Source: an uncultured bacterium (lineage in GTDB: Bacteria; CSSED10-310; CAZUFC01). From it: DNA of 64,000 nucleotides. The DNA lies in contig CAZUFC010000024.1 in assembly GCA_964619725.1 (NCBI GenBank), positions 1-64,000 of the forward strand, written 5' to 3'. The notes below the pieces were generated by a model. The model was not told the DNA's origin. It saw only the letters and a program-made list of their open reading frames with translations, and did no database searches. The translations under genes were made by a program, and so were the position numbers. Positions 10,154 to 40,975 of the stretch are shown here, one piece after another. Position 1 is the first letter of the stretch. Every line of letters begins with the position of its first letter.

Positions 10154-11803
10154 TCATTCCCCCTGAGAAGATTCCTGATCATTTAAGTTATTATCTGGAT
10201 TGGCATCGAAATGTCGTTCTTTTTGAAACATTTTATGTTCCGGACCGAAATAGAAACCTTCCCGGCTTTTTTGTAATCGTTCGTCAAGTCTGTGAACTTC
10301 GTCGAAAGATGTCCGTTCATTCCAGATGATGCGGGGTTGAAGGAACAGGACAAGTTCAGAGTTTCTATGGGTCTGTATCGTTCTTCTGAAAAGCGTTCCT
10401 ATCCAGGGCAGGTTGCCCAGGCCCGGAACCAGGGAAACGGCTTCGGTTTTTTTTCTTTTCATGAGTCCGCCGATGACAGCGGCCTGATTATCGGAGACTT
10501 TAATGACGGTAGAGGCTTCCCGGACGTCGATGATGGGGAGCGGTGCAGCATTGGTGGTTCTGCCGGGATCGGTATACCCGACCAGTTCGGAAATGACGGG
10601 GTTGACGAAGAGGATTATTTGACCGGTTTCGCTGATCTGGGGAATGACCTGAACCTGAATGCCTGCCTGGGCGAAAGATATGTCCCAGCCGACGATTTTA
10701 TCGGTTTCGGTGCTGACCACTGCTGAGTAGTATGGAATCTGTTCCGTAACGTTAATATAGGCCGGTTGGTTGTTGAGGACGGCCAGCAGGGGTTTGCTGA
10801 GGATATTCAGTTTGCCCTGGGATCCGAGAGCATCCAGGAGGAGAGTCGCGTGATCGGAAGTTATTGTGAACTGATAGGCGCCGCCTCCTATTCCCAGAGA
10901 TTGAGTCATTCTTCCAGCAGTGTGAGGAGACAGCCAGTCAAGTCCGACATTGGAAAAAGACCAGTCAATGCCCATTTGATACTCATCATCCAATGCCAGC
11001 TCAACGATCAGGGCTTCAATCACGACCTGGCGCTGCACGCTTGACTGAAAGCGTTTTAAAAAGAGCTCCATACTGTCCAGTCTTTCCGGACTGTCTTTCA
11101 ATATAATGATGCCGGATACGGGATTGACCGTCACCAGTCCTCTGTCTGATTTCAACGATTTCAATGTCTCTTCAAGCGAGTCCCAGAAGTCCGTTTCCGT
11201 TCCCTGAGAACCTTGCTGCGAACTGCCGCCGCGACTGAAAGGACTGGAAAAAGAGCCCTGTCCTCCCCCGGCGCCGCTCTGTCCCCCGAATCCCAAACCT
11301 GCAGAAGCAGGATAATTAATCTGGTAGGCTCGCGTACCGGTTTCGGTTATGCGTATAACGTCGTCTTCTATGTCATACGCCAGATCAGCGGTTTTTAAAA
11401 TGCACTTCAACAAGGCGTCCAGGCGGACTTCTTCCATATTCAAACTCAGCGTCCGGTTCTCAATGTCAGCCCCGAATATGACATTCAAACCGCTCTGCGC
11501 TGCAATGCCCTGCAATACGGTCAGCAAATCCGCATCACGGAGCTGCACATTATAAGTTTTATCGCCGTTCGGGATTTCCATTGCAGGCATTGCAAGCCTT
11601 TGAATGCTTATTTCGGGGATTTCCTGCGTGCGCTTTTCCGAATCGTTCTGCGGATGCGAAGGAACAGGACTGGGAAAGGGAGCGTAAAAGCGGTCCTGAT
11701 CCCTTATTTTGCCTGTTTCCAGTTGAGTGACCGTTTTACAGGAAATGCACCATATAATCACAGATAAAACAATAATAATTTTAAATAACTTGTTATTCAA
11801 CAT
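10154..11803 (-). CDS. Secretin (MshL/GspD/PilQ family), lipoprotein type
   Basis: Lipobox IS-C; STN and N domains; secretin core QVVIEALIVEL…MGIDW…LSKPLLAVLNNQPAYI…VIGGLM…VPGLGNLPWIGTLF…ELVLFLQPRI. Confidence 0.92.
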   Translation of the reverse strand: MLNNKLFKIIIVLSVIIWCISCKTVTQLETGKIRDQDRFYAPFPSPVPSHPQNDSEKRTQEIPEISIQRLAMPAMEIPNGDKTYNVQLRDADLLTVLQGIAAQSGLNVIFGADIENRTLSLNMEEVRLDALLKCILKTADLAYDIEDDVIRITETGTRAYQINYPASAGLGFGGQSGAGGGQGSFSSPFSRGGSSQQGSQGTETDFWDSLEETLKSLKSDRGLVTVNPVSGIIILKDSPERLDSMELFLKRFQSSVQRQVVIEALIVELALDDEYQMGIDWSFSNVGLDWLSPHTAGRMTQSLGIGGGAYQFTITSDHATLLLDALGSQGKLNILSKPLLAVLNNQPAYINVTEQIPYYSAVVSTETDKIVGWDISFAQAGIQVQVIPQISETGQIILFVNPVISELVGYTDPGRTTNAAPLPIIDVREASTVIKVSDNQAAVIGGLMKRKKTEAVSLVPGLGNLPWIGTLFRRTIQTHRNSELVLFLQPRIIWNERTSFDEVHRLDERLQKSREGFYFGPEHKMFQKERHFDANPDNNLNDQESSQGE

Positions 11804-11917
11804 GGGGACTGCTCCTGGCGTGTCGGCACGCTTCCGCCGTTTCTTGAAAAGCCGTAAACTGTTATTTGGTTTCCTGTCGATAAATTCATCTTTACGTTCA
11901 TCACTGCGATCCTGAAT

Positions 11918-12472
11918 TCATTCGAATTTCCTGAAGGACAACAATTCCAGCAGACGTTCATCTCCCTTTTTATTCCTCAGCAGCGCCGCATCCTTCGATA
12001 TTTCCGCCACTTCAAACCCATCGATAAATTCTTTCTCATGTACCAGAACCCCGTTAATCACAGCCGATTTTTCAGTACTGCTGATAATTACTCCCTCCAG
12101 GTTGAAATTTTTCTCACTTGCATCGTCCGCAGTTTCCTCTTCATGCCTTTTTTCTTCGGTCATTCTCTTATCGTCGCCCGCAAAGGGATTTTGCAATTCT
12201 TCATCGATTTCCAGGAGTTCCGTTTTTTTCTCCCGTGAAAGGTCTCGAATCAAGGATGTGAGGTCCGACGATTTTGCCGGCGATTCTCCTGTATCGTTCT
12301 GCTGAAGAGATTTAGGCAATCGTATATTTTCGTTCGCGGTACCGCCGGGTATAAGGGATCGGCTCCTGTCCGGGGAACCGGAACCCGAAAATCCGAAATA
12401 GTAAACGTCATAAAGTATCACTAAAGCCAGAAGAAAGAATACGACAGCAATAAATGTCCTGTTTTTCAGCAA
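11918..12472 (-). CDS. MshK/GspB/PilP-like membrane-anchored accessory protein
   Basis: N-terminal TM; NPF motif followed by LEGVIISSTEKSAVINGVLVHEKEFIDGFEVAEI; position immediately before the secretin. Confidence 0.6.
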   Translation of the reverse strand: MLKNRTFIAVVFFLLALVILYDVYYFGFSGSGSPDRSRSLIPGGTANENIRLPKSLQQNDTGESPAKSSDLTSLIRDLSREKKTELLEIDEELQNPFAGDDKRMTEEKRHEEETADDASEKNFNLEGVIISSTEKSAVINGVLVHEKEFIDGFEVAEISKDAALLRNKKGDERLLELLSFRKFE

Positions 12473-12475
12473 AAT

Positions 12476-13063
12476 TCATATCCCCCAGACCGATTTTCTG
12501 GAATAAATTTTAACTTTCATCTCTATCCCCATCATATCGCCGGTCCTGTGTATCGTTAAATCGTTTATCTCCACTATTCGCTCAAAAGCCGTTAAATTAT
12601 TTAAAAAAGTAAAAAATGGCTTCACTTCAGATTTAAAACGCAACTGAACCGGTATTTCATGGACCGCTCCTACCGCTCCCGTATCAAGCCGGCTGCCCCC
12701 CGATAACGACTCGGCCGGTCTATCCCTTTCAATTACATAATTGAATTCTTTCAATCCTGTTTCATAAGCCGCATCCGCCAGTTCTGAAAGGAATCCTGAA
12801 ACATCGCCTCCGAAAGGAACACGTTTGTCGATCAGTTCCGTAACTCCCTCCAGGGAGTCCCTCTGAGCCTGAGTCAAAGTTTTATATGTCGAGCTTATTT
12901 CCAGGTCACGATTGATTCTTTCCTGTATATCTTGGGAAAGGTTTTTCCAATGTTCTATACTTCGTAGAGTCGGCAGGTAGGAAAATATAAGAAAAAAAGC
13001 GCCGATAACGGCCAATGCCGCCATAAAAACGGCCGGCCTTTTCCATTGCGACGGCTTTTCCAT
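12476..13063 (-). CDS. PilO/MshJ/GspM-like alignment protein
   Basis: Single TM, coiled coil, C-terminal ferredoxin-like region (IPVQLRF…FFTFLNNLTAFERIVEINDLTI); operon context. Confidence 0.75.
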   Translation of the reverse strand: MEKPSQWKRPAVFMAALAVIGAFFLIFSYLPTLRSIEHWKNLSQDIQERINRDLEISSTYKTLTQAQRDSLEGVTELIDKRVPFGGDVSGFLSELADAAYETGLKEFNYVIERDRPAESLSGGSRLDTGAVGAVHEIPVQLRFKSEVKPFFTFLNNLTAFERIVEINDLTIHRTGDMMGIEMKVKIYSRKSVWGI

Positions 13064-14631
13064 TAACTGTTCCTCAAAGCGCTGTCCTGTGTCCGGGTTT
13101 GGTTGATGTCAGCCAGAAGGCTTTCGATGCTGAAATGCAACTGAACGGGCATTTTTTGTTTTAAATCATCTGAAGAGGGCCGTTTTTTTCGCGTTCCGGC
13201 CGATTTTCTGTCTGTATTGACTTCGAGCTGTTTGATGTCAACAAGTGTGAAACGTCCCGAATCTTCAACTTTCTGATGAAATTCATTAAACCGTGATTGG
13301 GCTGCGGATGCATCAGGAGCGTAAATGTTTCCTTCGAGCAAAGCCGCCCAGCCGTTTTTTTGTTTTCTTATTTCCAGCTTGTCGAATTCCGAGCCGTCAG
13401 GGGCTTGTGCGAAAAAGACGTACAAGGCTGGTCTCAGATCGATTTCATTTTCCGACAGTCTGAGTATCTCTTCGATCTGGCGCTGATATTTTTGAATTTT
13501 TCTAACAGAACCGAGGTTTTTATCGATAGTGTCCTCGATACGCTGCAATGTTTTCTGTTGCTGTTCGCAGGAAGCTCGATAGGAGTGTTCCGCGTGTTTC
13601 AGGGCTGTCGAACCTGCGAAAAGCGCGATAAGAAAAAGAAGGGAAACGGCGATGTAGAAGGCTCTTCTTTTGCCCGTGTTTTTTGCTTCATAGTATTCAT
13701 AGGGGATAAGGTTCAGGGCTTTTTTTTGAGGTTCGAGGGCGGGGAGAATTACAGGATCGGCGATAGACCTTCGTTCTTCATTCGGTCCCAGGACTGTTTC
13801 ATCAAGGTAAAGGGGCGTTGCGGAATCGACATCCAGGGATTGACCGAAAACGTCCGCCATCTGGTATTCGTCGGCATATATACCTGCCAGGTAAACATGA
13901 GAAACGGTTTCCCCCGGCATTTTTTTTGCGTAGTATTGGAATGTGCGTTCCGTTTCAGCAATAACCTGTTTCAGCGCCTTCTGTTCAGCGTTATCTTTGG
14001 AGAAAGTTTCCATGCCGATAGGAATTTCTCTATGAAAAGAAAAGAGGGCGCCCTGAAAGATCATAACGTCCGTATGACGTGCAGCGGGGGCAATCACAGC
14101 GGACAACGCCGGCTGCTGAGACGTCCGGGACGACAGATAATCTCCGGTTGCCGCCGGCGCCGTGGTCATCCTGACAGGCGATATCCCGGCTGCGGTCAGC
14201 GTTTCCAGCCACAGACGCATCAATTCTACGGGATAGGTGGCCCATAGAATTTTCATGCGCTGCAATCCTTTCTCCCTGACCATGCCGACAACCTGGTAAT
14301 CCGAAACAAGAGGCTGATTCATGCGCTGTTCTTTCCGCAACCTTTCCCGGTGAAACACATGACGCAATTCCTTGTCGGCCATCGGCGGCACAGTCATAAC
14401 TTCATGTTCAAGCTCATTGCCGGACAACAGAATCAACGCCGCAGTTCCTGAACATCCGCAATCCTCAATAAAATCGACTATCCTGGCTTTAAAGGAAGGA
14501 TCGTTCGATTCGCCCGTTTCCAGCTCCATGCTGCGATCGATCAATACGTCTATCGCCCTGGAGCTCCTCTTTACGGAAAGCAGCCGAATGACATTATGCG
14601 AAATATGGAAAACCGAAAATGACTTTTTCAT
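13063..14631 (-). CDS. PilM-PilN-like fusion (MshI/GspL-type)
   Basis: Cytoplasmic actin-like PilM region (…FHREIPIG…IAETERTFQYY…VYLAG), conserved LNLIP motif, TM, periplasmic PilN-like domain. Confidence 0.75.
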   Translation of the reverse strand: MKKSFSVFHISHNVIRLLSVKRSSRAIDVLIDRSMELETGESNDPSFKARIVDFIEDCGCSGTAALILLSGNELEHEVMTVPPMADKELRHVFHRERLRKEQRMNQPLVSDYQVVGMVREKGLQRMKILWATYPVELMRLWLETLTAAGISPVRMTTAPAATGDYLSSRTSQQPALSAVIAPAARHTDVMIFQGALFSFHREIPIGMETFSKDNAEQKALKQVIAETERTFQYYAKKMPGETVSHVYLAGIYADEYQMADVFGQSLDVDSATPLYLDETVLGPNEERRSIADPVILPALEPQKKALNLIPYEYYEAKNTGKRRAFYIAVSLLFLIALFAGSTALKHAEHSYRASCEQQQKTLQRIEDTIDKNLGSVRKIQKYQRQIEEILRLSENEIDLRPALYVFFAQAPDGSEFDKLEIRKQKNGWAALLEGNIYAPDASAAQSRFNEFHQKVEDSGRFTLVDIKQLEVNTDRKSAGTRKKRPSSDDLKQKMPVQLHFSIESLLADINQTRTQDSALRNS

Positions 14632-14660
14632 CTAACTCGTTAAGATTTTCTTTTGCCCGG

Positions 14661-15680
14661 TTATTTCCAGATGTCGTCTCCGGACCAGGATGGCGGATAA
14701 CTCTCATCTACGCCGTTCGGACCCCAACTGTATATATAGAACCTGTTTTTGTAAACCTCATAATCGAACGGCGTCCCCCAGGAATCGCCGCTCAATATCA
14801 ATTGATGATTGACGTAAGGTCCTTGCCAGCCGTCCAAACCCGGATCGTCCACCAGCTCATCCAGATTCAGCGGTGTCTGCTTCGTGTCCTCTATGAAACT
14901 CTGTACAGCGCCGATCAGGTTCCGGCAACGCTCGCTCGTCGCCTTTACCTCTTCAGTCAGTCTTGTCTTGTAACTCACATAAAAAACGTTCCCCCGGGAA
15001 TCGATCAGCTCGCAACTGAAAGCATCATACTCCGGTTCATAACGATAACGGACGGCGCTTCCCCAGGCGTCGACAGCTATCTCTTCCTCGCTTACGCCGC
15101 TTATATAGGGCCCGTTCCACCATTCGTTCCCGTTCACGTTCTCCAGAAGCATCGACAAGGCGTCCCTCGTTCCCCGGGAAGAGACAGGAAATGTATGCAT
15201 ATCCGAATAATAATTCATTAAAGCCCTGGACACTGCCTCCATCTTCTCACGGTTGGCGTTCTCCTTCCGGTAAGTTTTGGACGGCGGCGCCACTATCGTA
15301 TAAACTATGTCCGTATCATAACTGCCCTGGTTGTCCGTTTCATCGCGTCCCCAACTGTAAAGAGTCAAAGTGTCCGAATCATAATCATAAGGATTGATCC
15401 AGGAATCCTCCTTGTAATCGTTCTCGTAAAATCCCCGGCTCATGTATGGAGGTTCGGATTCCACAAGAGCGTCAAGACTCTCCGGCCAATCCCCTTCTAT
15501 TTCATAATAACTCTCTATCGCTGAAATTATGTTCTCCATCTCCTCCTTGGTCGCGTTTTCCTTCTGAGTCGACCGCAGCAGGTCGACCAACGGCAGCGAA
15601 AGCGTCGCCAGCAGAGCCATAATGCCCATAACCACTATAATCTCTATGAACGTAAAGCCTCTTATTCTATATTCTCTCAT
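14661..15680 (-). CDS. Prepilin-type protein carrying three tandem GspG-like (T2SSG) domains
   Basis: Class III signal G|FTFIEIIVVMGIMALL; three repeats of (W-x-G)P-Y…D-x-W-(G)-x-P/A-x-x-Y. Start set at MREYRIRG (alternative 15710). Confidence 0.85.
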   Translation of the reverse strand: MREYRIRGFTFIEIIVVMGIMALLATLSLPLVDLLRSTQKENATKEEMENIISAIESYYEIEGDWPESLDALVESEPPYMSRGFYENDYKEDSWINPYDYDSDTLTLYSWGRDETDNQGSYDTDIVYTIVAPPSKTYRKENANREKMEAVSRALMNYYSDMHTFPVSSRGTRDALSMLLENVNGNEWWNGPYISGVSEEEIAVDAWGSAVRYRYEPEYDAFSCELIDSRGNVFYVSYKTRLTEEVKATSERCRNLIGAVQSFIEDTKQTPLNLDELVDDPGLDGWQGPYVNHQLILSGDSWGTPFDYEVYKNRFYIYSWGPNGVDESYPPSWSGDDIWK

Positions 15681-15738
15681 ATCTTTAACCTCCCTTACTT
15701 CTTGTATCATAATTACAGAAAAAAGAAAATCTCTAATC

Positions 15739-18125: not shown

Positions 18126-18154
18126 TTGACAAATGAATTCGACTGTTGGAGAAT
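18126..18154 (+). promoter_or_regulatory. Putative sigma70 promoter of tRNA-Leu
   Basis: TTGACA, 17-bp spacer, GAGAAT, ending 9 nt before the tRNA. Confidence 0.5.
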
Positions 18155-18163
18155 AGGATTCGG

Positions 18164-18248
18164 GCCGGAGTGGCGGAACTGGCAGACGCGCGGGACTCAA
18201 AATCCCGTGGTCCTTTGGGCTGTGTGGGTTCGATTCCCACCTCCGGCA
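18164..18248 (+). tRNA. tRNA-Leu (anticodon CAA)
   Basis: Acceptor stem GCCGGAG/CTCCGGC; D-arm GGCGGAACTGGCAGACGC; anticodon stem CGGGA-CTCAAAA-TCCCG; long variable arm; T-loop GGTTCGATTCC; CCA not encoded. Confidence 0.97.
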
Positions 18249-18474
18249 TTTTTTTTTACTTAAAAAACTGCAGCCAAGAACAGGCCGCCCCTGTTCTCAA
18301 TATGAAGCGAGTAATGACGATGAAGTTCTGCAAGATTGCGTGGGCGGTTCCGGTTATGAAATGCATCTTTTCAACCATCCGATTTTTGCCCCATCCATCC
18401 CTTCCCTATTTTCAACCAGACGGGATGAAATGCCTTCATGGAAGGGGACTCCAGTAATTTTTAGCGCCGATTGA

Positions 18475-18978
18475 ATGAAGCGGTTAAAATATCTTGTTCT
18501 TTGGGTATCGGTCATTTATGCGGCGCCTTGCATTATCCGTGTAAAAGCGGCGGATGATGCCGTTCCTCTGACGTCTCAAACTAAATCCGTACTTTTCCCT
18601 GGTTGGGGACAAATTTCCGAAGGCCATACATTAAAGGGTTTGACATTCATGACCTGTGAACTGGTTTCTATCGGACTGGCCATTCATTACGGCATGGAGG
18701 GCAGCGATTATTACGACCGTTACCGGAGAACGGACGATCCGAATGATGCTGAGCGTTTCCGGAACCTGACCGTTTTAAACGATAAAAGGAGGAACGCCGC
18801 CGTATTGTGCGGCATAGCCGTCTGGGGGCTGAATCTTCTGGACATCAACCTCGGAAAGCCGAAACCGGCAAGCTTTTCCGTTCAATCAACGGGAAGAGCT
18901 TTTCGATTAGATTCTTTTTCGGCGCTGCCCCATCCTTCGGGTATATTTTTTTCTTTGTCCTTCAGTTTAGAGATTTAG
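18475..18978 (+). CDS. Hypothetical membrane/exported protein (DUF5683-like)
   Basis: SVLFPGWGQ motif followed by hydrophobic helices and VWGLNLLD. Confidence 0.6.
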   Translation: MKRLKYLVLWVSVIYAAPCIIRVKAADDAVPLTSQTKSVLFPGWGQISEGHTLKGLTFMTCELVSIGLAIHYGMEGSDYYDRYRRTDDPNDAERFRNLTVLNDKRRNAAVLCGIAVWGLNLLDINLGKPKPASFSVQSTGRAFRLDSFSALPHPSGIFFSLSFSLEI

Positions 18979-19045: not shown

Positions 19046-20866
19046 ATGAAAAAACTGATAATCAGGGAGCCCAACGGAAACCGTCGTTCAGTAATATTTT
19101 CCGGTCCCAAGCTGACGATCGGCAGGGATGATACTAATGATGTGGTATTGCTCGATCCGCAGGTATCCCGGCGTCATGCTGCGGTTTATATGGAAAACGG
19201 CGGTTTTTCCATAATCGACCAGCGCAGTTCAAACGGAACGTTCGTGGATAATGAGAAGATCGTCGGGAAGCGTTTTTTAAGAGGCGATGAAACCATAAAG
19301 GTGGCGGATTACGTCATCAGTCTGGCAGTGGAAGATGCGGATGACGATACGAACGGTTTTCGAGGGTCCCGGGCAAAAGTTGAGTCTAAAGCTCAGGAGA
19401 ATGCAATGAAGTCGCAGACGGTCCGGGTTCGAGCTGCTGAAGCGCCTAAATCCGCTCGCGGGGCAAGCCGTCCGGTCAAGCGAAATGAGGTAATGCCTGA
19501 AAAGAGAGGGGGGGGCAGGGGAGTAAAAGAGAAGTCAGAAAAACTGGACCTGAAGCGAGAAAACATTCTAATCGACATAAGGCGTGAGATACACGGGCGA
19601 CTGCTTCAGTATATGGACCTCCGGAAGATGGATTTCAACAAGATGAAGGACCAGCGGTTGAAGAAGGACGTCAAGTCGTTGATGGACGAGATAATCCTGG
19701 AGCTTGACAATGAGATACCATCCTGGGTGGACAGGGAGATTCTGAGCAAGAATGTACTTGATGAAGCGTTGGGATTGGGACCTTTGGAGGATTATCTGGC
19801 AGACGACACTGTGACGGAGATAATGGTGAACAACAAGGATAAAATATACGTGGAGCGTCATGGAAGATTGGAAAAGGTGTCGCGGCGTTTTTCATCGGAT
19901 GAAGCGGTGTTGTCGGTTATCGAACGGATTGTGGGTCCGATAGGGCGACGTATCGACGAGAGTTCTCCATATGTCGACGCGCGATTGAAGGACGGTTCCA
20001 GGGTCAACGCCATCATACCGCCCCTGGCTTTGACCGGACCGACCCTGACGATAAGAAAATTTTCCCGGGAACCTTTCAAGGTGAATGATTTAATATCGTT
20101 CGGTTCTTTGACGGGAGAGATGGCACAATTTCTGGAAGCATGCGTTCGGGCGCGGAAAAACGTAATCATTTCCGGCGGAACGGGATCGGGCAAGACGACG
20201 TTGCTGAATGTCGTTTCTTCTTACATTCCTGAGGGGGAGCGAATAGTAACGATAGAGGATGCGGCGGAATTGAAACTGCCGCAGGAGCATGTGGTTTCCC
20301 TGGAGGCGCGGCCTCCGAACATAGAGGGAAAGGGGGCCATCGTCATTCGGGACCTGGTTAAGAATTCGTTGAGGATGCGACCGGACCGCATAGTGGTGGG
20401 AGAATGTCGAGGAGGCGAGGCGCTGGATATGCTTCAGGCGATGAATACGGGGCACGACGGGTCCATAAGCACCATTCACGCCAATTCGCCTATAGACTCT
20501 TTGAACCGCCTGGAAACGATGGTGTTGATGTCGGGTATGGAATTGCCCAGCCGGGCGATCCGCGAGCAGATATCTGCAGCGATCAACATTATCGTTCAGA
20601 CTGCACGGTACTCAGACGGCACCCGTAAAATTTCCCATATATCCGAGACGCTGGGTTTTGATGAACTGGGCCGCATCAAGGTCGTCGATCTTTTCCGTTT
20701 TTACCAGGAAGGTCTGGATGAAGAGGGCGGAGTTATTGGAACATATTCAGCCACAGGCATCGCCCCGACTTTCATTGACGAATTCCGGTCCAAGGGCATA
20801 CCTTTCGATATGGAGATACTCAACAAAAAAACAGACAGAATCAAGGCGCAGGTCAACCGATCATGA
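19046..20866 (+). CDS. tadA: Tad/Flp pilus ATPase (CpaF/TadA) with N-terminal FHA domain
   Basis: FHA motifs IGR…VSRRHA…S-SNGTFV; GLGPLE…EIMVN; Walker A GGTGSGKTT; LRMRPDRIVVGECRG; MNTGHDGS. Confidence 0.93.
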   Translation: MKKLIIREPNGNRRSVIFSGPKLTIGRDDTNDVVLLDPQVSRRHAAVYMENGGFSIIDQRSSNGTFVDNEKIVGKRFLRGDETIKVADYVISLAVEDADDDTNGFRGSRAKVESKAQENAMKSQTVRVRAAEAPKSARGASRPVKRNEVMPEKRGGGRGVKEKSEKLDLKRENILIDIRREIHGRLLQYMDLRKMDFNKMKDQRLKKDVKSLMDEIILELDNEIPSWVDREILSKNVLDEALGLGPLEDYLADDTVTEIMVNNKDKIYVERHGRLEKVSRRFSSDEAVLSVIERIVGPIGRRIDESSPYVDARLKDGSRVNAIIPPLALTGPTLTIRKFSREPFKVNDLISFGSLTGEMAQFLEACVRARKNVIISGGTGSGKTTLLNVVSSYIPEGERIVTIEDAAELKLPQEHVVSLEARPPNIEGKGAIVIRDLVKNSLRMRPDRIVVGECRGGEALDMLQAMNTGHDGSISTIHANSPIDSLNRLETMVLMSGMELPSRAIREQISAAINIIVQTARYSDGTRKISHISETLGFDELGRIKVVDLFRFYQEGLDEEGGVIGTYSATGIAPTFIDEFRSKGIPFDMEILNKKTDRIKAQVNRS

Positions 20867-21720
20867 TTGAAAATATTCCTCTTGTCGTAAACGCCGTCGT
20901 TTTCGTTTCAGTCGTTCTGTTCATTACTGCAGGATGGAGCGTTTTTAGAAAAGGCTTCAAACGTTATGAAGAGAAATATCTCACCAGGACGGCTCAATCT
21001 CTGGATGAGATGTTTCTGGTATTCACTGCCGAACAGATTCTGTATTTGAACCTGTTATCCGTTTTCGTTTTCGGGGCTCTGATTTTTTTCATATCTGGAA
21101 GCTGGCAGTGGATGATCTTCGGCGCCCTGTTCGGATGGCTCCTTCCCAAGATGATCCTCAGGATAATAAAAAAGAAACGTCTGAAGAATTTCGAAGAGCA
21201 GCTCCTGACGGCTTTATCGACTCTTTCCAGTTCTCTGCGGGCCGGATTCAGCCTGGTCCAGGCCCTGGAAATGATCAGCCGTGAAATGAACCCCCCTATA
21301 TCGCAGGAATTCGGGCTTATGCTGAGAGAAAACAAGCTGGGCGTGCATTTGGATAAGGCACTGCAGAACATGACCGAGAGGGTCAAATCCTCCAATCTTG
21401 ATCTTATGATCACATCGATCATTATCGCCAGATCATCGGGAGGCAATTTAGCTGAAATTTTCGAACGCATTTCCAATACCATTCGGGAAATCAACCGCCT
21501 GGAAGGAAAGATAAACGCTCTAACCGCTCAGGGACGTTTGCAGGGCATCATAATAGGTTTGCTGCCCATCGTCCTGGGTTATATTATTTACCTTTTCGAT
21601 CCTGAAATGATGATGCTTATGTTCAACGATCCCATAGGCTGGGGCATATTAGGCATCATAGTCATTTTTGAGGCGCTGGGAGTCTATTTTATTTGGCGCA
21701 TTATTTCTATAGATATTTAA
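20863..21720 (+). CDS. tadB: TadB-like inner-membrane platform protein (T2SSF family)
   Basis: SSLRAGFSLVQAL…EFG…GGNLAEIFE…ALTAQGRLQG; multiple TMs; overlaps the tadA stop. Confidence 0.9.
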   Translation: MIENIPLVVNAVVFVSVVLFITAGWSVFRKGFKRYEEKYLTRTAQSLDEMFLVFTAEQILYLNLLSVFVFGALIFFISGSWQWMIFGALFGWLLPKMILRIIKKKRLKNFEEQLLTALSTLSSSLRAGFSLVQALEMISREMNPPISQEFGLMLRENKLGVHLDKALQNMTERVKSSNLDLMITSIIIARSSGGNLAEIFERISNTIREINRLEGKINALTAQGRLQGIIIGLLPIVLGYIIYLFDPEMMMLMFNDPIGWGILGIIVIFEALGVYFIWRIISIDI

Positions 21721-21732
21721 GGAAGGACGACG

Positions 21733-22680
21733 ATGATTGATCTTCTGGTAGGCGATACGCGATCTTTACTTTTTTTGATAGCTATTTCTGCTTTCCTGTT
21801 CGGGAGTATTTTTCTGCTGGTGATATCATTCCGCCCGCGTCAACTGCTCCAGGAAATAGATTATGTTCCGGTAAGGTATCGGGGTCATCTCGGCCGTATC
21901 CGGGAAGATTTGAAGAAGAAGAATCCGTTATACCGGATTATGCTTCCTTTGATTTCTTTTCTCGGTTTTTTAATCGACAAGATACCCATGAAAAATTTAA
22001 AGAAAAAACTGGATAAAAAACTCATCATGGCCGGCAATCCCGGCGCTTTTTCTCCTTCTGAATATATGGCAGTCGTCATCATCGTGACCGTGGCTGTGCC
22101 GACAGCGGTTTATTTCATCATGCTTATGCTTTTCGGAAAGGCCCATCCCATAGCCATTTTCGCAGCCTGCCTACTGGGATTCATGTACACCATTATGTGG
22201 TTGAGCGACGCGGTTACGAAACGTTCCCGTTCCATCAACAGGTCCCTGCCGTATACTCTCGATCTGCTCACCCTCTCTATCGAAGCCGGACTTGATTTCA
22301 TCGCAGCGGTGGAGAGGATCGTTACCAAAAAGAAAGAAAGGGGACCTTTGACGGAAGAACTGTTTCAAATGCTGCAGGAATTGAAAATGGGCAAAACCAG
22401 AAGAGAAGCTTTACGCGACATGAGCGCCCGGGTTAACCTGGAGAACCTTAATTCCGTGGTCAGCGCTCTGATACAGGCCGATCAGTTGGGATCGAGTCTA
22501 GGACCTGTATTGAGGATTCAATCGGAAATGCTTCGGTTGCGTCGTTCGCAGAGAGCGGAAAAACTTGCCATGGAAGCGCCCGTAAAAATGACTTTCCCAT
22601 TGCTCCTGATATTCACCAGCGTTTTTCTTTTATTATTCGGGCCGATTATCATAAAATTCATCAGAGGAGGAATTTTCTAA
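21733..22680 (+). CDS. tadC: TadC-like inner-membrane platform protein
   Basis: LPYTLDLLTLSIEAGLDF…GKTRREAL…LIQADQLGSSLGPVLR…AEKLAMEAPVKMTFPL. Confidence 0.92.
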   Translation: MIDLLVGDTRSLLFLIAISAFLFGSIFLLVISFRPRQLLQEIDYVPVRYRGHLGRIREDLKKKNPLYRIMLPLISFLGFLIDKIPMKNLKKKLDKKLIMAGNPGAFSPSEYMAVVIIVTVAVPTAVYFIMLMLFGKAHPIAIFAACLLGFMYTIMWLSDAVTKRSRSINRSLPYTLDLLTLSIEAGLDFIAAVERIVTKKKERGPLTEELFQMLQELKMGKTRREALRDMSARVNLENLNSVVSALIQADQLGSSLGPVLRIQSEMLRLRRSQRAEKLAMEAPVKMTFPLLLIFTSVFLLLFGPIIIKFIRGGIF

Positions 22681-22685
22681 CGGAA

Positions 22686-23936
22686 ATGAGAGCTAAACTG
22701 ATCATTATTGAAGGAGCCAATCCGGGCGCTGATTTCACGCTTAATTATCCTCAAATTCGTATCGGCCGTTCCGTCGATTCTGAGATAATATTGAACGACA
22801 AGACCGTTTCCAGGGTTCATGCCGTCATCAGTCAGAGTGAGAACGGGTGGGAAATCAGAGACAACGACAGTCAAAACGGCACTTTCGTAGGCGATGAGAG
22901 AATCGAAGAGGCGCCGTTGGATGACGGAGACGAAATAAAGATCGGCGCCACAGTTTTTCAATTCCAGTTGATAAAAGAGAAGGGGGCTCGGAACTTATTC
23001 GGAGGCAAGGGCAAATCGGGCGATTTAGGCGAGAAATGGGGTAATGCGGACCAGAAGAGGAAGGGGCTGTTGCCTTCCCGACCGGTATTAATCACTTTTT
23101 TTCTTATATGTATTGTTCTGGCGCCTTTATTTATATGGAAAGAATTCATTGTGAAGCCGGAGGTTGATGCCAAGCCGCTGTTGTTGCCGTATCAGTTTTC
23201 GGTAGGATATATGCCGAAGGGGGACCAGGGTCACAGGAATCATGCGGAGTTGATTTTCAGCGCGGAAACGGAGGACCTGGAATTGTGGTTCAAGGTATGG
23301 GATGTGGACGATGAGGATGAGTTGGATATTCTTCTTAACGGTGAGAAGATAGCGGATGTGGAGACGACGGGTAGCGGCAACTGGAGCGGCGAGCGTCATA
23401 TCCGTCTGCCTTCGGGATTAATCAACGTGGGAAGGGACAACTCGGTCGTTTTCGATAATTATTACAATCCGCCGAAGAGTCAATTCTGGGGAGTAAGCGA
23501 TATACGTGTGGTGCCGGTTACTGCTTTCGAATGCAATACGGAAGCGGCGCAGGATGCTTATGAAGTGGGAAAAGCGCTTTTCGATTCATATAAAATACGA
23601 CCGCGGAACCTGTTCGATTCGATGAAAAAACTCGAGGCTTCGCTGAACTATATGAAAAACTGTGGGGATAAACCTCCGTTTTACATTGAAGTTCAGGAGC
23701 TTCATCAGGAAGTAAAAAGCAAGTTGGATACGGAGATTAAGAATCTGTTTTTTACGGCGGCCAAGAATCGGCATTTGAAAAGATTCGATGAAGCGGAGAC
23801 CGCTCTTTTGAAGATCATGGCGATGATTCCTTCGCCCAATTCGGAGGAGTACGTGCGCGCCAACCGGGAACTGATAAGGTTGAGGGGGACTATGCGCAAG
23901 TCAAGAAAGAAGGGCGGGAGTTCCGTATTGCCGTAA
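22686..23936 (+). CDS. FHA-domain membrane protein with periplasmic beta-sandwich and helical domain
   Basis: IGRS…VSRVHA…SQNGTFV FHA motif; TM at about residues 133-150. Confidence 0.8.
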   Translation: MRAKLIIIEGANPGADFTLNYPQIRIGRSVDSEIILNDKTVSRVHAVISQSENGWEIRDNDSQNGTFVGDERIEEAPLDDGDEIKIGATVFQFQLIKEKGARNLFGGKGKSGDLGEKWGNADQKRKGLLPSRPVLITFFLICIVLAPLFIWKEFIVKPEVDAKPLLLPYQFSVGYMPKGDQGHRNHAELIFSAETEDLELWFKVWDVDDEDELDILLNGEKIADVETTGSGNWSGERHIRLPSGLINVGRDNSVVFDNYYNPPKSQFWGVSDIRVVPVTAFECNTEAAQDAYEVGKALFDSYKIRPRNLFDSMKKLEASLNYMKNCGDKPPFYIEVQELHQEVKSKLDTEIKNLFFTAAKNRHLKRFDEAETALLKIMAMIPSPNSEEYVRANRELIRLRGTMRKSRKKGGSSVLP

Positions 23937-24012
23937 GTGGTCCGGAGGAATCAGGCCGGGAACGGTTTGAAGTTTTGAACAGACATTAAAAAAGGAGACA
24001 GGCGAAAGATCA

Positions 24013-26433
24013 ATGGCGGGATTATTGTTTATATCAGATTCGCAGGATTCCAGAGAATATATAATCGAAAGCGACGCAACGAGCATAGGAAGCGACGAAG
24101 CGAATGCGCTGGTATTGAAGGGAGAAGGTGTCGCTCCTTTTCATTCCGAGATTCGGAAAGAAGACGCTCGATATATATTGCATGCCACCGACGAGGAAGC
24201 CTCTACTTACGTCAATGCTATCCGCACGGAAGAATGCGAATTGACGGACGGCGATCAGATACAGATCGGAGCGCACATATTCCTGTTTCAAAGCGAACTT
24301 GATAATGAAAAAGCAGGCGCCCCTCCAGCCAATGTTTTTGATGCTGAAAAGACTATCGCTCAATTGGACGACGCTCCTTTAGCGGAACCGCGCGGAAAAC
24401 TGACGGTATTTCAGGCGGGTTCTCTGGTGAACGAATTGTATTTATATGACGAGCCTGTGTTTTTGGGGCGTGAGGATACGAACCAGCTTGTTCTGCCGGA
24501 CAAGAATATCAGCCGCCGCCATGCCAAGGTGCTGCCCGTTGAAAGCGGTTATGCGGTGATTGATCTGGACAGCAGCAACGGTACCTTCGTCAACCGGCGA
24601 CGGATATACGAAAGGACGGCGCTGGAATCGAACGATGAGATTCGTGTAGGTGGTTATGACGTTTTATTTCAAATGCTGGATCAGGCCGTTTCCGGAGAAC
24701 GAACGGTGGTTGCGGATGAGGCGATTGAAGATGAAAATACGATTGCAGTTGAGACGGAAGAAGAGTTGCAGGCGGTTATTGAACGGCAGTATCCCAAACT
24801 GATCGTCATCAGCGAAAATAATTATGGTACCGAATACGAATTAAGAGAGTCTTTCATGACTATCGGCCGAGCAAGGGGAAACCATATCGTTATAGCCGAC
24901 GATTCCATATCGCGGGAGCACGCTGCTTTAAGAATCTCCGGGGAAAAGGTCAAAGTCGATGATATGGGCAGTACGAACGGCATCCTGGTGAACGGGCAGC
25001 AGAAAGAATCGGCTGTGTTGAATCCGAATGATGTTCTGACTGTGGGAGATATACACCTCCAATATGCTGCCCCGGGCGCTGCTTTTCAGTTGCGGGATGC
25101 CGGGGATACAGTTGATCTGACTGATCAGGATAAAAGCCGGCGAAAAAAGAAACTTTCTTCAAGTATGCCGAAGCTCCTCATTTTCGCAGCGTTGATCGTA
25201 GTGGCTGCGGGTTTCATCGGGGCTGCTCTTTTTCGTTATATAGGAGGACCGTCCGGCGGATCGTCACGCAACACCAGCGGAAAAAGCGGCCTGTCCTTGA
25301 GTGAAAGTAAGAACGCGGTCATCGATCCTGAAGCCGCCAATATAAATCTTTATCAAACCATGACCCAGGGCCGGCAATTCCTGGACCAATATCAATGGAA
25401 TGCTGCAATTCAGGAATTCGATAAGGTCCTGGCCGCACAACCGGATAATGCTGAAGCCGTTGAATTAAGGAATAACGCTGTCGCTGAAAAAGAATACCTT
25501 CAAAAACTCGATTTCGCCATCGCCAGGTTCGACAGCGGGCAGGATAACGCAGCCCGGGAACTGTTCGAAGTAATTCCTGAAAAAAGCGTCTATTATTCCA
25601 GGGCCCGGGAATACATCGAGAGCATGAATGAATCCGCTGCAGCAGAATATCTCGACAGCGGCCTGGCTTTGATGAGAAGAGGAAATTACGGGCAGGCCGT
25701 CAACCGTTTCGATGCCGCTCTCGATATTGATCCCGGCAATCAGGAAGCATTGAGCGCCAGGAGAAGAGCTCTTCAGGCATTGAACGCTCCCCAAATCGAA
25801 AAACCCAAACGCGATCCCGGCGCGCTCAGAAGAAAAGCGGAGGCGCTTGTCGATCAAGCCATAAACGCTTATGTTGAAGGAGAACCTGAAAAAGCGGAAA
25901 ACCGCCTTAACGGAGTCATGGCCCTGGACCTGAATCCCGGCGATCAAATCGTCAGAGAAGCCCAGACGCTATTGAGCAGAATTAAACAGGTCAAATCACA
26001 TTTTCAGGCCGGAAAAAACGCTTTTCAGCGGAATGAAAATGAAAAAGGCCTGAACGATTACCTGAACGTAATAGAAATAGACAGGCAAATCACCGATAAG
26101 AAAAACAGCTACTATTATACGGAAGTTAAAGGAACCGCTGTTGAAGAATTGTTGAATCAGGGTCGCGCATATGAAGATTCTCAACAATTCTGCAAGGCGT
26201 TCAGAAATTACCGGGAAATCTTAAAAATCGATCCGGACAACTGGAAGGCCGAGAAATATATTGAAGCCATCGAGAAGAAAGCGATTGACATCTACAGGGT
26301 CGGTTATAGTCAGCAGGATTTCAATCCGCGTCTCACAGCTAGCCGGTATAAGGAAGTTATGAATCTGCTGTGCCCCGAACACGAATATTATAAAAAGGCG
26401 CAGCAGGGTATCGAAGAAATTATGAACAGGTGA
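24013..26433 (+). CDS. Triple-FHA, TM and periplasmic TPR protein
   Basis: One degenerate and two canonical FHA domains (LGR…ISRRHA…SSNGTFVN; IGR…ISREHA…STNG); TM; TPR helices. Confidence 0.85.
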   Translation: MAGLLFISDSQDSREYIIESDATSIGSDEANALVLKGEGVAPFHSEIRKEDARYILHATDEEASTYVNAIRTEECELTDGDQIQIGAHIFLFQSELDNEKAGAPPANVFDAEKTIAQLDDAPLAEPRGKLTVFQAGSLVNELYLYDEPVFLGREDTNQLVLPDKNISRRHAKVLPVESGYAVIDLDSSNGTFVNRRRIYERTALESNDEIRVGGYDVLFQMLDQAVSGERTVVADEAIEDENTIAVETEEELQAVIERQYPKLIVISENNYGTEYELRESFMTIGRARGNHIVIADDSISREHAALRISGEKVKVDDMGSTNGILVNGQQKESAVLNPNDVLTVGDIHLQYAAPGAAFQLRDAGDTVDLTDQDKSRRKKKLSSSMPKLLIFAALIVVAAGFIGAALFRYIGGPSGGSSRNTSGKSGLSLSESKNAVIDPEAANINLYQTMTQGRQFLDQYQWNAAIQEFDKVLAAQPDNAEAVELRNNAVAEKEYLQKLDFAIARFDSGQDNAARELFEVIPEKSVYYSRAREYIESMNESAAAEYLDSGLALMRRGNYGQAVNRFDAALDIDPGNQEALSARRRALQALNAPQIEKPKRDPGALRRKAEALVDQAINAYVEGEPEKAENRLNGVMALDLNPGDQIVREAQTLLSRIKQVKSHFQAGKNAFQRNENEKGLNDYLNVIEIDRQITDKKNSYYYTEVKGTAVEELLNQGRAYEDSQQFCKAFRNYREILKIDPDNWKAEKYIEAIEKKAIDIYRVGYSQQDFNPRLTASRYKEVMNLLCPEHEYYKKAQQGIEEIMNR

Positions 26434-26480
26434 CGAGCGGAGCTTCCGTCGCAGGTTTGAAAAGTCAAGAGGCCGGCATT

Positions 26481-27464
26481 ATGAGTGAAAAAATCGACAG
26501 CATCAAACTCATGAAAATGAGCAATATTTTATTGATTTTATTGATTTTGGTTATTTCGGCATGCAGGCATAAGACTCCCGGTCCTTATGATGGGGAAGGC
26601 ATGGCCCCGGATGAAAAAGAACTCGTTAAAGAAGTTACCGATAATCCTGACGACTATGAAGCTCATTACAGGCTGGGCTGTTTTTATATGGATAACGGTC
26701 GCCCGACAGACGCGATAGAAGAATTCAACGCGGCGCTCTTTTTGAATCCGAATTCATTCAAATCCTGGTTCAGGTTGGGTTATGCCAAAATGCTTCAGTC
26801 CCGTTTTTACGATGCCGTCATGCCCCTGGAAAATGCTGTCGCCCTGTCGCCCGATTCCACAATAGCCCGAAATAATCTGGGTTACGTATACATCCAGATT
26901 GGAGAATTCGGTAAGGCGGAAGATCAGTTTAATGCTGTATTGAGCATAGAACCCGATTCTCCGGAAGCTCACAGGAATTTGGCCGTCATCTATACGCACT
27001 TCAATAAAAACCTGGAAAAAGCGCTTCATCACAACCGGGAATTCGTTAAACTTGCCCCCGACGATCCTAGGACTCCCAGGCTGAAACAGTGGATTCTGTC
27101 AAAGGAAAAACTTGTGGAGGAACCTCCAGAACCTTATTCCGGAGAGCCGTCCGAAGCTGCAGAGCAGCAGATGGCTTTGGCGTCCAAACATTACGCCGAC
27201 GGCCTGGATGCTCTGAAGGCAGGGCGTGACAGAGATGCTTACCGTTATTTTATGATGGCCCTGGCTGAGAATCCCTGGCATGAAGAAGCAAACTATAAAA
27301 TGGCTGAATTTTATGCGTCCAAAAATCCGCCTGCTCCTGCTGCAGCCTTGCAATGCATCCGCAGAGCGTTGACTATGGCTCCCGATTCCGAAAGATACAA
27401 AGAATTGGAAGAGAAAATACTGGAACTGGTAGAAGAAAAAGCGGCAAAAAGCAAATCGAATTAA
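26481..27464 (+). CDS. TPR-repeat lipoprotein (TadD-like position)
   Basis: Lipobox ISA-C; several TPR motifs (AHYRLG…, ARNNLGYVY…). Start uncertain (26481/26511/26518). Confidence 0.75.
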   Translation: MSEKIDSIKLMKMSNILLILLILVISACRHKTPGPYDGEGMAPDEKELVKEVTDNPDDYEAHYRLGCFYMDNGRPTDAIEEFNAALFLNPNSFKSWFRLGYAKMLQSRFYDAVMPLENAVALSPDSTIARNNLGYVYIQIGEFGKAEDQFNAVLSIEPDSPEAHRNLAVIYTHFNKNLEKALHHNREFVKLAPDDPRTPRLKQWILSKEKLVEEPPEPYSGEPSEAAEQQMALASKHYADGLDALKAGRDRDAYRYFMMALAENPWHEEANYKMAEFYASKNPPAPAAALQCIRRALTMAPDSERYKELEEKILELVEEKAAKSKSN

Positions 27465-35891: not shown

Positions 35892-36339
35892 TCAAGAGTT
35901 TCATGCAGTAATTACAGACCTGTTTGAACCGGCTGACTATCACGCCGCTCGTATTTTTATTGGGAACGACAAAAAAAACGGCGCAATACATTCTCCCATT
36001 TACAAAGGCATAGTTTTAGACGCACTCGTTACAAGAATTCAGCCGGGATCGGTATCGAAATAGAAGCAAATAGTGCCGGGAGCTTTACGCAAAAAAAAAA
36101 CGGATGTTTATCAGGCGATGATGAAGCATTTTGGGTTTAATTGCACTGTGAGTAATTGAGTGACAATGCCTTTGCTTTTTTTTGAATATTTTGACACAGT
36201 GCACAATTATCAGTATTTGATGAAGAGATGGCCTTTTATGCGAGGCTGCTTAGCTTTTTTTGAGACTGCTTGCGTTTCATTTATAATATGGTTTTTCGGT
36301 GAAAAAAACGAAAAGTAATATTTTATGACGGAGGAGAGG

Positions 36340-38791: not shown

Positions 38792-40975
<2,184 letters not shown>

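Follow-up and report, generated by a model that had tools for sequence, protein, structure and literature searches.

The question raised by this locus is whether a bacterium of a small uncultured phylum carries a contact apparatus related to the Kil system, with which Myxococcus xanthus kills its prey. The locus is an operon of six genes at positions 19046 to 27464 of a 64,000-nucleotide stretch of DNA from an uncultured bacterium of the CSSED10-310 lineage (contig CAZUFC010000024.1, positions 1 to 64,000; G000:C24:1-64000 among our genomes), and we refer to this whole stretch as the window. An initial annotation, made from the sequence, described the operon as a Tad module rich in FHA domains and resembling Kil. 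We consider, with a probability of roughly 0.7, that the six genes provide the cytoplasmic and inner-membrane half of a single complete Tad (type IVc, Flp) pilus machine, which belongs to the FHA-rich Kil lineage and whose assembly would be gated by phosphorylation. Prey killing as the output of this machine appears doubtful to us. Statements on the literature refer to the accessible portions of the cited sources.

The operon and its FHA domains

The six genes and the evidence for each assignment are as follows.

19046..20866, plus strand: FHA-TadA/CpaF motor ATPase, 606 aa; Pfam FHA (residues 24-78) and T2SSE (242-518)
20863..21720, plus strand: TadB-type inner-membrane platform protein, 285 aa; one T2SSF domain (Pfam, 6.9e-22)
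21733..22680, plus strand: TadC-type inner-membrane platform protein, 315 aa; one T2SSF domain (Pfam, 6.1e-16)
22686..23936, plus strand: bitopic FHA-transmembrane (FHA-TM) protein, 416 aa; Pfam FHA (24-87), transmembrane (TM) helix by hydropathy at 133-151
24013..26433, plus strand: bitopic 3xFHA-TM-TPR protein, 806 aa; three FHA stretches and TPR by Pfam, TM helix at 388-406
26430..27464, plus strand: TPR lipoprotein, 344-aa open reading frame (ORF); Pfam TPR families, lipobox ISAC, Cys45

Adjacent genes overlap by 4 bases or are separated by gaps of 5-76 bases, all six frames are open, and the conserved motifs are kept. The make-up reported in the initial annotation, with these six products and five FHA domains among them, was confirmed by Pfam and a hydropathy scan. 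In the 606-aa ATPase, an N-terminal FHA domain is followed by a linker and a CpaF-type ATPase (T2SSE match in Pfam, 9.6e-64). The best solved relatives of this protein are CpaF structures (E 1.1e-118), and an alignment with 17 relatives shows invariant columns at its Walker A motif (GGTGSGKTT, residues 377-385) and at its Asp, Walker B and His boxes; NCBIfam also returned a weak match of TadA to TagH. TadB and TadC are 57% and 55% identical, respectively, to their homologues in G013, a genome of the same phylum. A phmmer search against the ORFs of the window's genome found both to be sole copies, each being the only paralogue of the other.

The initial annotation described the phosphothreonine-binding motif (G-R, S-x-x-H, N-G) as intact in four of the five FHA domains, and an alignment of the five bears this out. 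The FHA domain of TadA is among the intact ones, and the degenerate one is the first FHA of the 806-aa protein, which reads GS, APFH and AS at the three sites; FHA2 and FHA3 of the same protein are intact. According to Pfam, every FHA of the window also matches the Yop-YscD_cpl family. This match favors a different explanation of the operon, in which it serves an ordinary Tad pilus for adhesion or biofilm formation and the FHA domains are structural scaffolds, as in SctD/YscD of type III secretion systems (T3SS), instead of readers of phosphothreonine. Tad pili generally serve adhesion (PMC8460266; 2026 Bdellovibrio preprint), one of the five domains has lost its binding residues, and no kinase is encoded in the operon. 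However, the other four domains keep all three parts of the motif. Furthermore, the FHA in the AlphaFold model of the FHA-TM protein (pLDDT 89.1, 32 sequences) superposes on the phosphothreonine-binding GarA/OdhI with Z 20.1 (rmsd 0.9, 95 aligned, 38% identity) and is more distant from the cytoplasmic domain of YscD (Z 12.4, 19% identity).

The frequency of FHA genes beside other Tad systems also argues against the scaffold explanation. We searched the flanks of 80 Tad loci of named genomes with a home-made FHA hidden Markov model (HMM; 5 seeds, E<=1e-3) and found extra FHA ORFs at 4 of the 16 loci with FHA on TadA, compared with 1 of the 64 loci without it. The statement that canonical Tad loci lack this FHA load therefore holds for 63 of 64 loci, and the load should be considered a specialisation and not the default. 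Taken with the binding residues and the model, this makes purely structural FHA domains in an ordinary adhesion pilus very unlikely in our view.

The FHA-TM protein is laid out as a cytoplasmic FHA (residues 1-99), a disordered linker, a TM helix (133-151), a periplasmic beta-sandwich (about 165-278) and a TPR-like helical domain (285-409). When modelled alone, the periplasmic part (pLDDT 94.8, pTM 0.81, 35 sequences) opens with an eight-stranded beta-sandwich and continues with five long helices in a TPR-like arrangement. Structure comparison relates the modelled sandwich to the carbohydrate-binding domain of BcsB (Z 9.4, rmsd 2.4, 99 aligned) as well as to chains bearing CBM35, CBM51 and CBM32 (Foldseek E 1e-6 to 1e-3), a likeness at the level of the fold only. 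The helical domain has structural matches up to Z 10.3; because these fall within the noise range of the tool for helical repeats, we read the domain only as TPR-like. We also considered whether the protein is PrgH/YscD-like throughout, which is unsupported, as no SctD or PrgH periplasmic chain is among the matches listed for the periplasmic model.

A HMMER search with the FHA-TM protein against 1.84 billion representatives gave 48,441 matches at E<=0.001, mostly through the FHA, and 84 at 1e-30; full-length proteins of ~400-450 aa make up about 30 of the best 150 matches. A word-indexed search with the periplasmic part returned 2 proteins, the query itself and one relative, and the HMMER scan found more. 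The periplasmic part matches the proteins at the same position in G013 (3e-42), G019 (6e-27) and G021 (4e-23). In the same 1.84-billion library, residues 165-280 (window 23178-23525) recur 2-15 times in tandem in many long proteins, and the beta-sandwich appears from these sequences to be a widespread repeat domain that has no name in Pfam.

In the 806-aa protein, the periplasmic side is a TPR-rich domain (~440-806). This TPR part matches proteins of the loci L016 (990 aa, 4e-28), L019 (722 aa, 2e-23) and L098 (638 aa, 8e-15), and the 806-aa protein also matches a protein of L114 (892 aa, 1e-15 and 6e-08). In all of these FHA/TPR homologues, a single TM helix is predicted to separate the FHA part from the TPR part. 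In the last gene of the operon, a signal peptide that ends in ISAC with Cys45 was recognised in the sequence and the hydropathy scan, and the true start is probably Met28 at 26511. NCBIfam matches this lipoprotein to PilW (8.4e-18) and Tgl (2.8e-15), both below the family cut-offs, and TPR proteins occupy the same gene position in G013 (L016), G011 (L115) and G091 (L103). We regard the protein as a possible pilotin or tether to the outer membrane, similar in kind to TadD, PilW and Tgl.

The rest of the machine in the genome

According to the Pfam scan and the locus comparison, the operon itself contains no Flp, prepilin peptidase, CpaB, TadZ or CpaC. The initial annotation noted the lack of a pilin, a prepilin peptidase, CpaB, TadZ and RcpA, which is correct for the operon but does not extend to the genome: cpaB-cpaC are located on a second contig (C52), and two flp genes, tadV, tadE, tadG and a further tadE on a third (C22). 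The genome is a bin of 9.17 Mb in 344 contigs, estimated to be 90.9% complete and 6.5% contaminated. Its sole RcpC/CpaB match is a 309-aa SAF+RcpC protein on C52, which scores 165.8 bits against the NCBIfam CpaB model (cut-off 71) and is followed by a 488-aa CpaC-type secretin in which Pfam shows only T2SS-T3SS_pil_N and Secretin.

Flp-like matches were found on C22 only, where the order is Flp, Flp, TadV, Flp-like, TadE, TadG, TadE and then two ORFs of no assigned family. The ORFs of 82 aa and 67 aa carry the pilin processing motif GQGMTEYIL. Against Flp_Fap, the 82-aa ORF reaches 22.7 bits and the 207-aa Flp-like ORF 28.0 bits, both below the cut-off of 32.2, and the 67-aa ORF has a weak match to Flp1_like (15.8 bits). 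TadV is a Peptidase_A24 protein of 176 aa (2.6e-16). After the minor pilins, a pair of ORFs of 330 aa and 151 aa (G000:C22:68740-72625; L004:13741-17626) has a near-identical repeat 2.5 kb downstream, which is either a duplication or an assembly repeat.

The three contigs resemble one another. C22, C24 and C52 have GC contents of 0.476-0.479 (bin mean 0.472, sd 0.013), and all three have tetranucleotide distances smaller than the median of the bin. No second copy of TadB, TadC, CpaB, TadV, TadE or TadG was found by phmmer among the ORFs of the genome, and CpaB (1e-54) and CpaC (6e-80) of C52 are most similar to homologues in G013. Because the parts are single-copy and relatives keep all three blocks in one cluster, we predict that the three loci form one complete Tad machine split over C24, C52 and C22. 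The division over separate loci, which the initial annotation mentioned as a property of Kil, was thus also found here. The genome-wide search for RcpA, CpaB, Flp and kinases yielded CpaB and the CpaC secretin on C52, the pilins on C22, and 34 Pkinase matches, none of which lies in the operon.

The upstream edge of the operon is marked by two further features.

18164..18248, plus strand: tRNA-Leu(CAA) (ARAGORN), at the 5' edge of the operon and not part of the machine
18475..18978, plus strand: 167-aa ORF with an N-terminal hydrophobic stretch, operon membership uncertain; weak DUF5683 match below cut-off

The 167-aa ORF has no NCBIfam match and no homologue beside tadA in related loci. Another ORF, at 18146-18457, is spurious because its translation runs through the tRNA gene. 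The tRNA sits where the relatives L016, L101 and L102 carry cpaB-cpaC directly upstream of tadA, and its position is a possible site of rearrangement or integration. Such a position would suit an operon that is an orphan or decaying remnant and no longer builds a pilus, or a bin in which the C22 and C52 parts come from another organism; the 344 contigs, the 6.5% contamination, and the lack of any RNA run among the sequencing runs that hold the stretch are in line with this. However, the six open frames with their conserved motifs, and the presence of each part once called missing as one intact copy closest to G013, are not what a remnant would lead us to expect. The uniform composition of the three contigs also stands against foreign parts, and Kil itself works from split loci (PMC8460266). 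We consider a remnant or a mixture of organisms extremely improbable and retain the reading of one machine in three loci.

The window contains another set of filament genes on the minus strand (10154-15710), which encodes a secretin of 549 aa, a 184-aa protein, a PilO-like protein of 195 aa, a 522-aa protein and a pseudopilin of 349 aa (N_methyl and T2SSG); the 184-aa and 522-aa proteins have no Pfam match. As a candidate for the outer part of the operon, this cluster was set aside because the relatives pair the operon with CpaB-CpaC, which are present on C52, and because CpaC matches the secretin of the cluster only at 1e-05. The genome as a whole holds 27 T2SSE matches (25 over the cut-off) and 7 secretins. 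At G000:C12:20454-22780 (L002:8455-10781), a 333-aa protein with two T2SSF domains precedes a 436-aa protein with a C-terminal FHA, which forms another FHA-linked, platform-like pair that has no ATPase beside it.

Relatives and the relation to Kil

Among the 13 other genomes of the phylum, a full-length FHA-TadA was found in G013 only, whose genes run CpaB-CpaC-FHA-TadA-TadB-TadC-FHA/TM (475 aa)-3xFHA/TPR (990 aa)-TPR (389 aa). The Myxococcota genomes G025 and G092 have the order Flp-Flp-TadV-TadE-TadG-x-CpaB-CpaC-FHA-TadA-TadB-TadC-FHA/TM, followed by a short second ATPase (TadA2), so that their cluster corresponds to the C22, C52 and C24 blocks placed end to end. Judged from these arrangements, the ancestral cluster appears to have been contiguous, and the break between cpaC and tadA in the window's genome coincides with the tRNA-Leu.

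According to the supplement of PMC8460266, Kil cluster 1 comprises an FHA protein, KilA (peptidase), KilC (secretin), KilF (FHA and ATPase) and KilD (FHA and TPR), and Kil cluster 2 comprises MXAN_4648 (FHA and TPR), MXAN_4649 (FHA, PrgH-like), KilH and KilG (GspF), KilB (CpaB) and pilins. In M. xanthus, these clusters span MXAN_3102-3108 and MXAN_4648-4661, and the system works from the split loci (PMC8460266). The comparison with Kil was made through stand-ins, namely the Myxococcota genome G021, selected by gene order, and named Myxococcaceae, and not through M. xanthus sequences. One contig of G021 reads CpaC-FHA-TadA-2xFHA/TPR (638 aa) and another TadE, TadG, CpaB-TadB-TadC-FHA/TM (476 aa)-FHA/TPR (892 aa), a split that follows the order given for Kil clusters 1 and 2 in the eLife supplementary table. 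The order TadB-TadC-FHA/TM-multiFHA/TPR of the window likewise agrees with Kil cluster 2 of that table. Moreover, residues 131-390 of the FHA-TM protein match the 476-aa protein of G021 at the MXAN_4649 position (iE 4e-23). Residues 454-753 of the 806-aa protein match the protein at the KilD position (iE 8e-15), and its residues 238-591 and 648-802 match the protein at the MXAN_4648 position (iE 1e-15 and 6e-08).

A TadA tree was built with FastTree from the TadA cores of 133 rows, which comprise 80 named-genome loci, loci of the phylum and of Myxococcota, and 17 proteins chosen from 120 listed; the long-branch row L015 was dropped. This tree contains an FHA-bearing clade of 43 rows (support 97), and the window falls within a 17-row subclade (99) together with G013, 12 Myxococcota rows, P0004, P0005, and P0007, the last of which comes from candidate division CSSED10-310. 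Another subclade is made up of the proteins of named Myxococcaceae (Archangium, Cystobacter, Corallococcus, Hyalangium and Vitiosangium) and lies beside G021 and G019 and beside a proteobacterial group with Acidithiobacillus, Thauera, Burkholderiales, Quisquiliibacterium, Chromatiales, Oleiphilus and a metagenome-assembled genome (MAG) of Spirochaetaceae. The idea that Myxococcaceae hold two FHA-TadA paralogues was rejected, as all 11 named rows lie in one clade. TadA matches at E<=1e-100 occur in 46 of the 81 Myxococcota genomes sampled, G021 among them.

A second TadA tree, calculated with a quick IQ-TREE search (LG+G4) from 65 of the 133 rows, left out P0044, P0071, P0073, P0080, P0092, P0095, P0103 and most canonical rows. 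It recovered the FHA clade with 35 rows (98) and the clade of the window with 17 rows (98), and it separated a 53-row ingroup of FHA, TadZA and related rows from 12 canonical rows (95). In a concatenated TadA, TadB and TadC tree (40 of 73 available triplets, 1004 columns), the window groups with G013 (99) and then with 11 Myxococcota rows (99), within an ingroup of 28 rows (the FHA-TadA rows and the non-FHA loci L007 and L083) that is set apart from 12 canonical rows with a support of 100. All of the trees are quick searches without bootstraps. A grouping of this TadA with ordinary adhesion Tad ATPases, which would speak against a Kil-like identity, was not seen in either type of tree. The FHA-TadA clade that holds the system is well supported, and within it the system groups with one genome of its own small phylum and is sister to Myxococcota systems.

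The resemblance to Kil proposed in the initial annotation therefore stands in part. The trees, the gene order and the homology of the accessory proteins beyond their FHA domains place the operon in a Tad lineage of the Kil type, but its sister group is a Myxococcota subclade outside the Myxococcaceae. Two of the supporting arguments did not survive. FHA-TadA had been treated as a mark of Myxococcota and Bdellovibrionota, but the same clade holds loci of Burkholderiales, Thauera, Acidithiobacillus, Chromatiales, Oleiphilus and Spirochaetaceae that have no extra FHA genes, and the clade is therefore not specific to predators. In addition, the Bdellovibrio-type ATPases are not FHA-bearing: those of 716-725 aa, together with a 757-aa protein of G011 and a 767-aa protein of G013, are fusions of a ParA/MinD-like domain with T2SSE, a type named TadZA in a 2026 Bdellovibrio preprint.

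Because proteobacterial FHA-TadA loci carry no further FHA genes and the fusion is widespread, FHA on the motor is rejected as a marker of Kil-like systems. Downstream of tadC, such loci continue with DUF192, a small TPR protein and TadE. What goes with the Kil-like kind is therefore the pair of bitopic FHA proteins. Outside Myxococcota, FHA-rich loci were found in two Lentisphaerota (L023, L085), an unclassified MAG (L031) and an Oligoflexia locus (L064); among Myxococcota, the locus L019 (MAG.506) encodes a 2xFHA-TPR protein. The literature confines Kil-like systems to three predatory orders, Myxococcales, Bradymonadales and Bdellovibrionales (PMC8460266; Nat Commun paper; 2025 review), and a survey reports generic kil homologues in 47 of 64 phyla (PMC12075869). 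According to the sequences and gene order compared here, the Kil-related, FHA-rich Tad lineage would gain a further member beyond Myxococcota and Bdellovibrionota, in a phylum from which the lineage was not known before.

The likeness to Kil of M. xanthus covers the FHA on a CpaF-type ATPase, the presence of genes for an FHA protein and for an FHA+TPR protein after the platform genes, and, through the stand-in, the homology of a KilD-type FHA+TPR protein with the 806-aa protein. It also covers CpaB, a CpaC-type secretin with only pil_N and Secretin, Flp pilins, a short prepilin peptidase, a minor-pilin triad, and genes that are split over loci. However, the machine of the window is distributed over three loci compared with two, its tadA stays with tadB-tadC, and one of its proteins has three FHA domains. 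Its operon closes with a TPR lipoprotein, whereas the pilotin TadD is counted as missing from Kil (PMC8460266), and its host lies outside Myxococcota. Beyond its own phylum, both the TadA and the concatenated trees place the machine closest (99) to the contiguous FHA-Tad clusters of Myxococcota (L019, G025, G092, G043), which share the order of all blocks and the FHA/TM protein after tadC. These clusters hold all parts in one place and carry a second short ATPase after the FHA genes (356-390 aa in most, a 907-aa ORF in L019), whereas the machine of the window is split and its operon has no second ATPase.

With canonical Tad/Cpa systems (Caulobacter CpaF, CpaG/H, CpaB, CpaC, CpaA and PilA; the Aggregatibacter tad locus), the machine shares the core set, CpaF as the best solved relative, and a CpaB that reaches the NCBIfam equivalog cut-off. 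It differs from them in the lack of TadZ/CpaE in its loci, in the five FHA domains and two extra bitopic membrane proteins, and in the position of its ATPase and platform proteins outside the canonical clade. The FHA-bearing 'class III' CpaF, mostly of betaproteobacteria such as Achromobacter (PMC12019362), has the same architecture of FHA, intrinsically disordered region and CpaF, and rows of this type (Burkholderiales, Thauera, Quisquiliibacterium) lie in the same FHA-TadA clade; the gene order after tadC and the lack of further FHA genes set their loci apart. The Tad system of Bdellovibrio has dispersed tad genes with FHA and TPR proteins nearby and is the sister group to the FHA-TadA clade, but in its ATPase, a ParA/MinD-like TadZ domain takes the place of FHA. 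We also observed Bdellovibrio-like TadZ-TadA fusions in the phylum of the window, at L115 (G011:C219:24000-43999) and L116 (G013:C3). The G011 locus additionally holds CpaB, CpaC, TadB and TadC, followed by three single-FHA membrane proteins and a TPR protein. This fusion type is absent from the window's genome.

Gating, output and host

Phospho-gated pilus assembly is the likely mechanism by analogy. Such a gating role has been proposed for Kil FHA proteins, and FHA-gated firing of type VI secretion systems (T6SS) is a known logic (PMC8460266; 2025 review for Kil). T6SS Fha/TagH with PpkA-PppA, and SctD/YscD of T3SS, likewise place a cytoplasmic FHA on or beside a membrane machine. However, these are different machines, and the model of the FHA-TM protein shows a beta-sandwich with helical repeats on the periplasmic side. 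The analogy is one of mechanism only. We propose that a TadA hexamer would dock on the TadB/TadC platform and that one or more Ser/Thr kinases of the genome would phosphorylate a component or a linker. The resulting phosphothreonines would be read by the FHA domains that are intact, four in number on TadA and the two membrane proteins, and the TadA motor would thereby be recruited to the platform or released from it. Phosphorylation could in this way let a signal set the site and time of extension and retraction of the Flp pilus, which the TadE-TadG-TadE set would prime. The platform may be tied to the cell wall and to CpaB/CpaC by the beta-sandwich in the periplasm, together with the TPR domains and the TPR lipoprotein. 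Assembly is likely to be triggered by contact, and its output may be adhesion, sensing of a surface or of cell contact, or prey killing.

One candidate writer for the FHA domains is a 683-aa fusion of an Hsp70-like ATPase and a Ser/Thr kinase at G000:C52:24300-26351 (L001:4301-6352), 3 kb upstream of cpaB-cpaC. This fusion has two paralogues, on C93 and C29.

Several observations weigh against the reading of one complete, phospho-gated machine of the Kil lineage. The three loci contain no TadZ, and an HMM from five TadZ-TadA N-termini matched only ParA/MinD-like ORFs elsewhere in the genome (C7, C87 and others). The operon holds one ATPase, and an orphan CpaF-like ATPase of 430 aa without tad neighbours is located on C86. 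The loci lie on three separate contigs of a contaminated bin, and their common origin therefore rests on composition, single-copy complementarity and synteny. The operon contains no kinase, phosphatase or obvious phospho-acceptor, and the phospho-switch is accordingly drawn from FHA chemistry. The trees held no sequences of M. xanthus, Bradymonas, Bdellovibrio HD100 or Caulobacter, with Archangium, Cystobacter, Corallococcus and G021 as the anchors for Kil, and in them the Myxococcota closest to the window form a subclade other than the Myxococcaceae clade that is expected to hold KilF. DNA reads with the stretch come from four runs of one microbial-mat study, none of which is an RNA run. Finally, the module is patchy in the phylum: full-length FHA-TadA and the periplasmic part of the FHA-TM protein each occur in only 1 of 13 other genomes.

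The phylum sample consists of 14 species genomes of 2.6-9.2 Mb. The periplasmic part of the FHA-TM protein is present in 2 of these 14 (G000 included) and in 6 of 81 Myxococcota genomes, with the helical part only in four of the six. Either transfer or wide loss would be compatible with this patchiness and with the sister relation to Myxococcota. For ribosomal protein S2 (rpsB) of the window, all named sequences are distant, and among those that cover much of the query candidate division CSSED10-310 ranks first (61% identity across 78%); a CSSED10-310 MAG is also the nearest named relative of TadA (58%). The literature on CSSED10-310 mentions sulfite respiration in an abstract, and the accessible portions of the literature found by our search contain no mention of predation. 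The suggestion in the initial annotation that the lineage may be one not known to be predatory agrees with this for a small uncultured phylum.

Could the machine nevertheless be a true functional analogue of Kil, which assembles at contact with another bacterium and kills prey with a minor-pilin-tipped pilus, the host being an unrecognised predator? The FHA/TM and FHA/TPR proteins have homologues at the MXAN_4649, MXAN_4648 and KilD positions, the system is sister to Myxococcota systems, and its split organisation and single TadE-TadG-TadE triad are like those of Kil and its 'Tip'. A 9.2-Mb genome with 34 Pkinase matches, 27 T2SSE matches and 7 secretins is a myxobacterium-like inventory, and the host lives in a dense microbial mat. 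However, the FHA-TadA clade holds many lineages that are not known as predators, and the tip genes of Kil are restricted to Myxococcota by sequence (Nat Commun paper). The nearest Myxococcota relatives are of the contiguous, two-ATPase type and not of the Myxococcaceae clade, the module occurs in only 1 of 13 other genomes of the phylum, and no T3SS*-like cluster was recognised, the FHIPEP gene on C16 standing alone. We therefore regard a killing function equivalent to that of Kil as unlikely and keep to a phospho-gated Tad pilus of the Kil lineage.

Two FHIPEP (FlhA/SctV) genes were observed in the genome, and the copy on C16 (G000:C16:28697-30817; L118:9698-11818) is of interest as Kil works with a needle-less T3SS in M. 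xanthus. Within 10 kb of it, there is no other flagellar or T3SS Pfam match; upstream of it are genes for a TPR protein of 185 aa and a DUF1521-like protein of 477 aa.

The operon is followed on its 3' side by rplM, rpsI, rpsB, tsf, pyrH, frr, uppS, cdsA, dxr and ispG. Between 17800 and 27800, promoter-like sites are not in excess (12, compared with 12.5 in shuffled sequences) and terminator-like sites number 17 against 11.1; we drew no operon boundaries from such sites. Elsewhere in the window, adjoining proteins of 771 aa and 732 aa (36325-40975) have collagen triple-helix repeats and a C-terminal Peptidase_S74 (endosialidase chaperone), which is the make-up of phage tail-fibre-like or surface fibre proteins. 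Two large surface or secreted proteins are encoded on the minus strand, one of 1766 aa with many bacterial Ig-like, fn3 and BNR domains (4110-9410) and a Sortilin/BNR protein of 911 aa (221-2956).

The full FHA-rich module, with FHA-TadA, the platform, the FHA-TM protein and the multi-FHA-TPR protein, is now seen in a candidate phylum, and its comparison with other loci separates a useful marker of Kil-like systems, the bitopic FHA proteins, from an unspecific one, the FHA on the ATPase. The model of the FHA-TM protein, with its FHA, TM helix, carbohydrate-binding-like beta-sandwich and TPR-like domain, suggests a route by which a signal in the periplasm or cell wall could reach the motor in the cytoplasm. 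This compact, co-linear module and the unsplit cluster of G013 may also be easier to model or express than the scattered genes of M. xanthus. Tentatively, and with little expectation that it will prove correct, we consider that the host may be a contact-dependent predator or attacker of other cells, with a Kil-like, phosphothreonine-gated Tad pilus obtained from Myxococcota or shared with them by descent. If the host is predatory, one more phylum would join the contact-dependent predators, and the occurrence of the FHA-rich Tad module in Myxococcota, Bdellovibrionota, Lentisphaerota and the phylum of the window would be that of a portable contact-weapon cassette instead of a deltaproteobacterial speciality.

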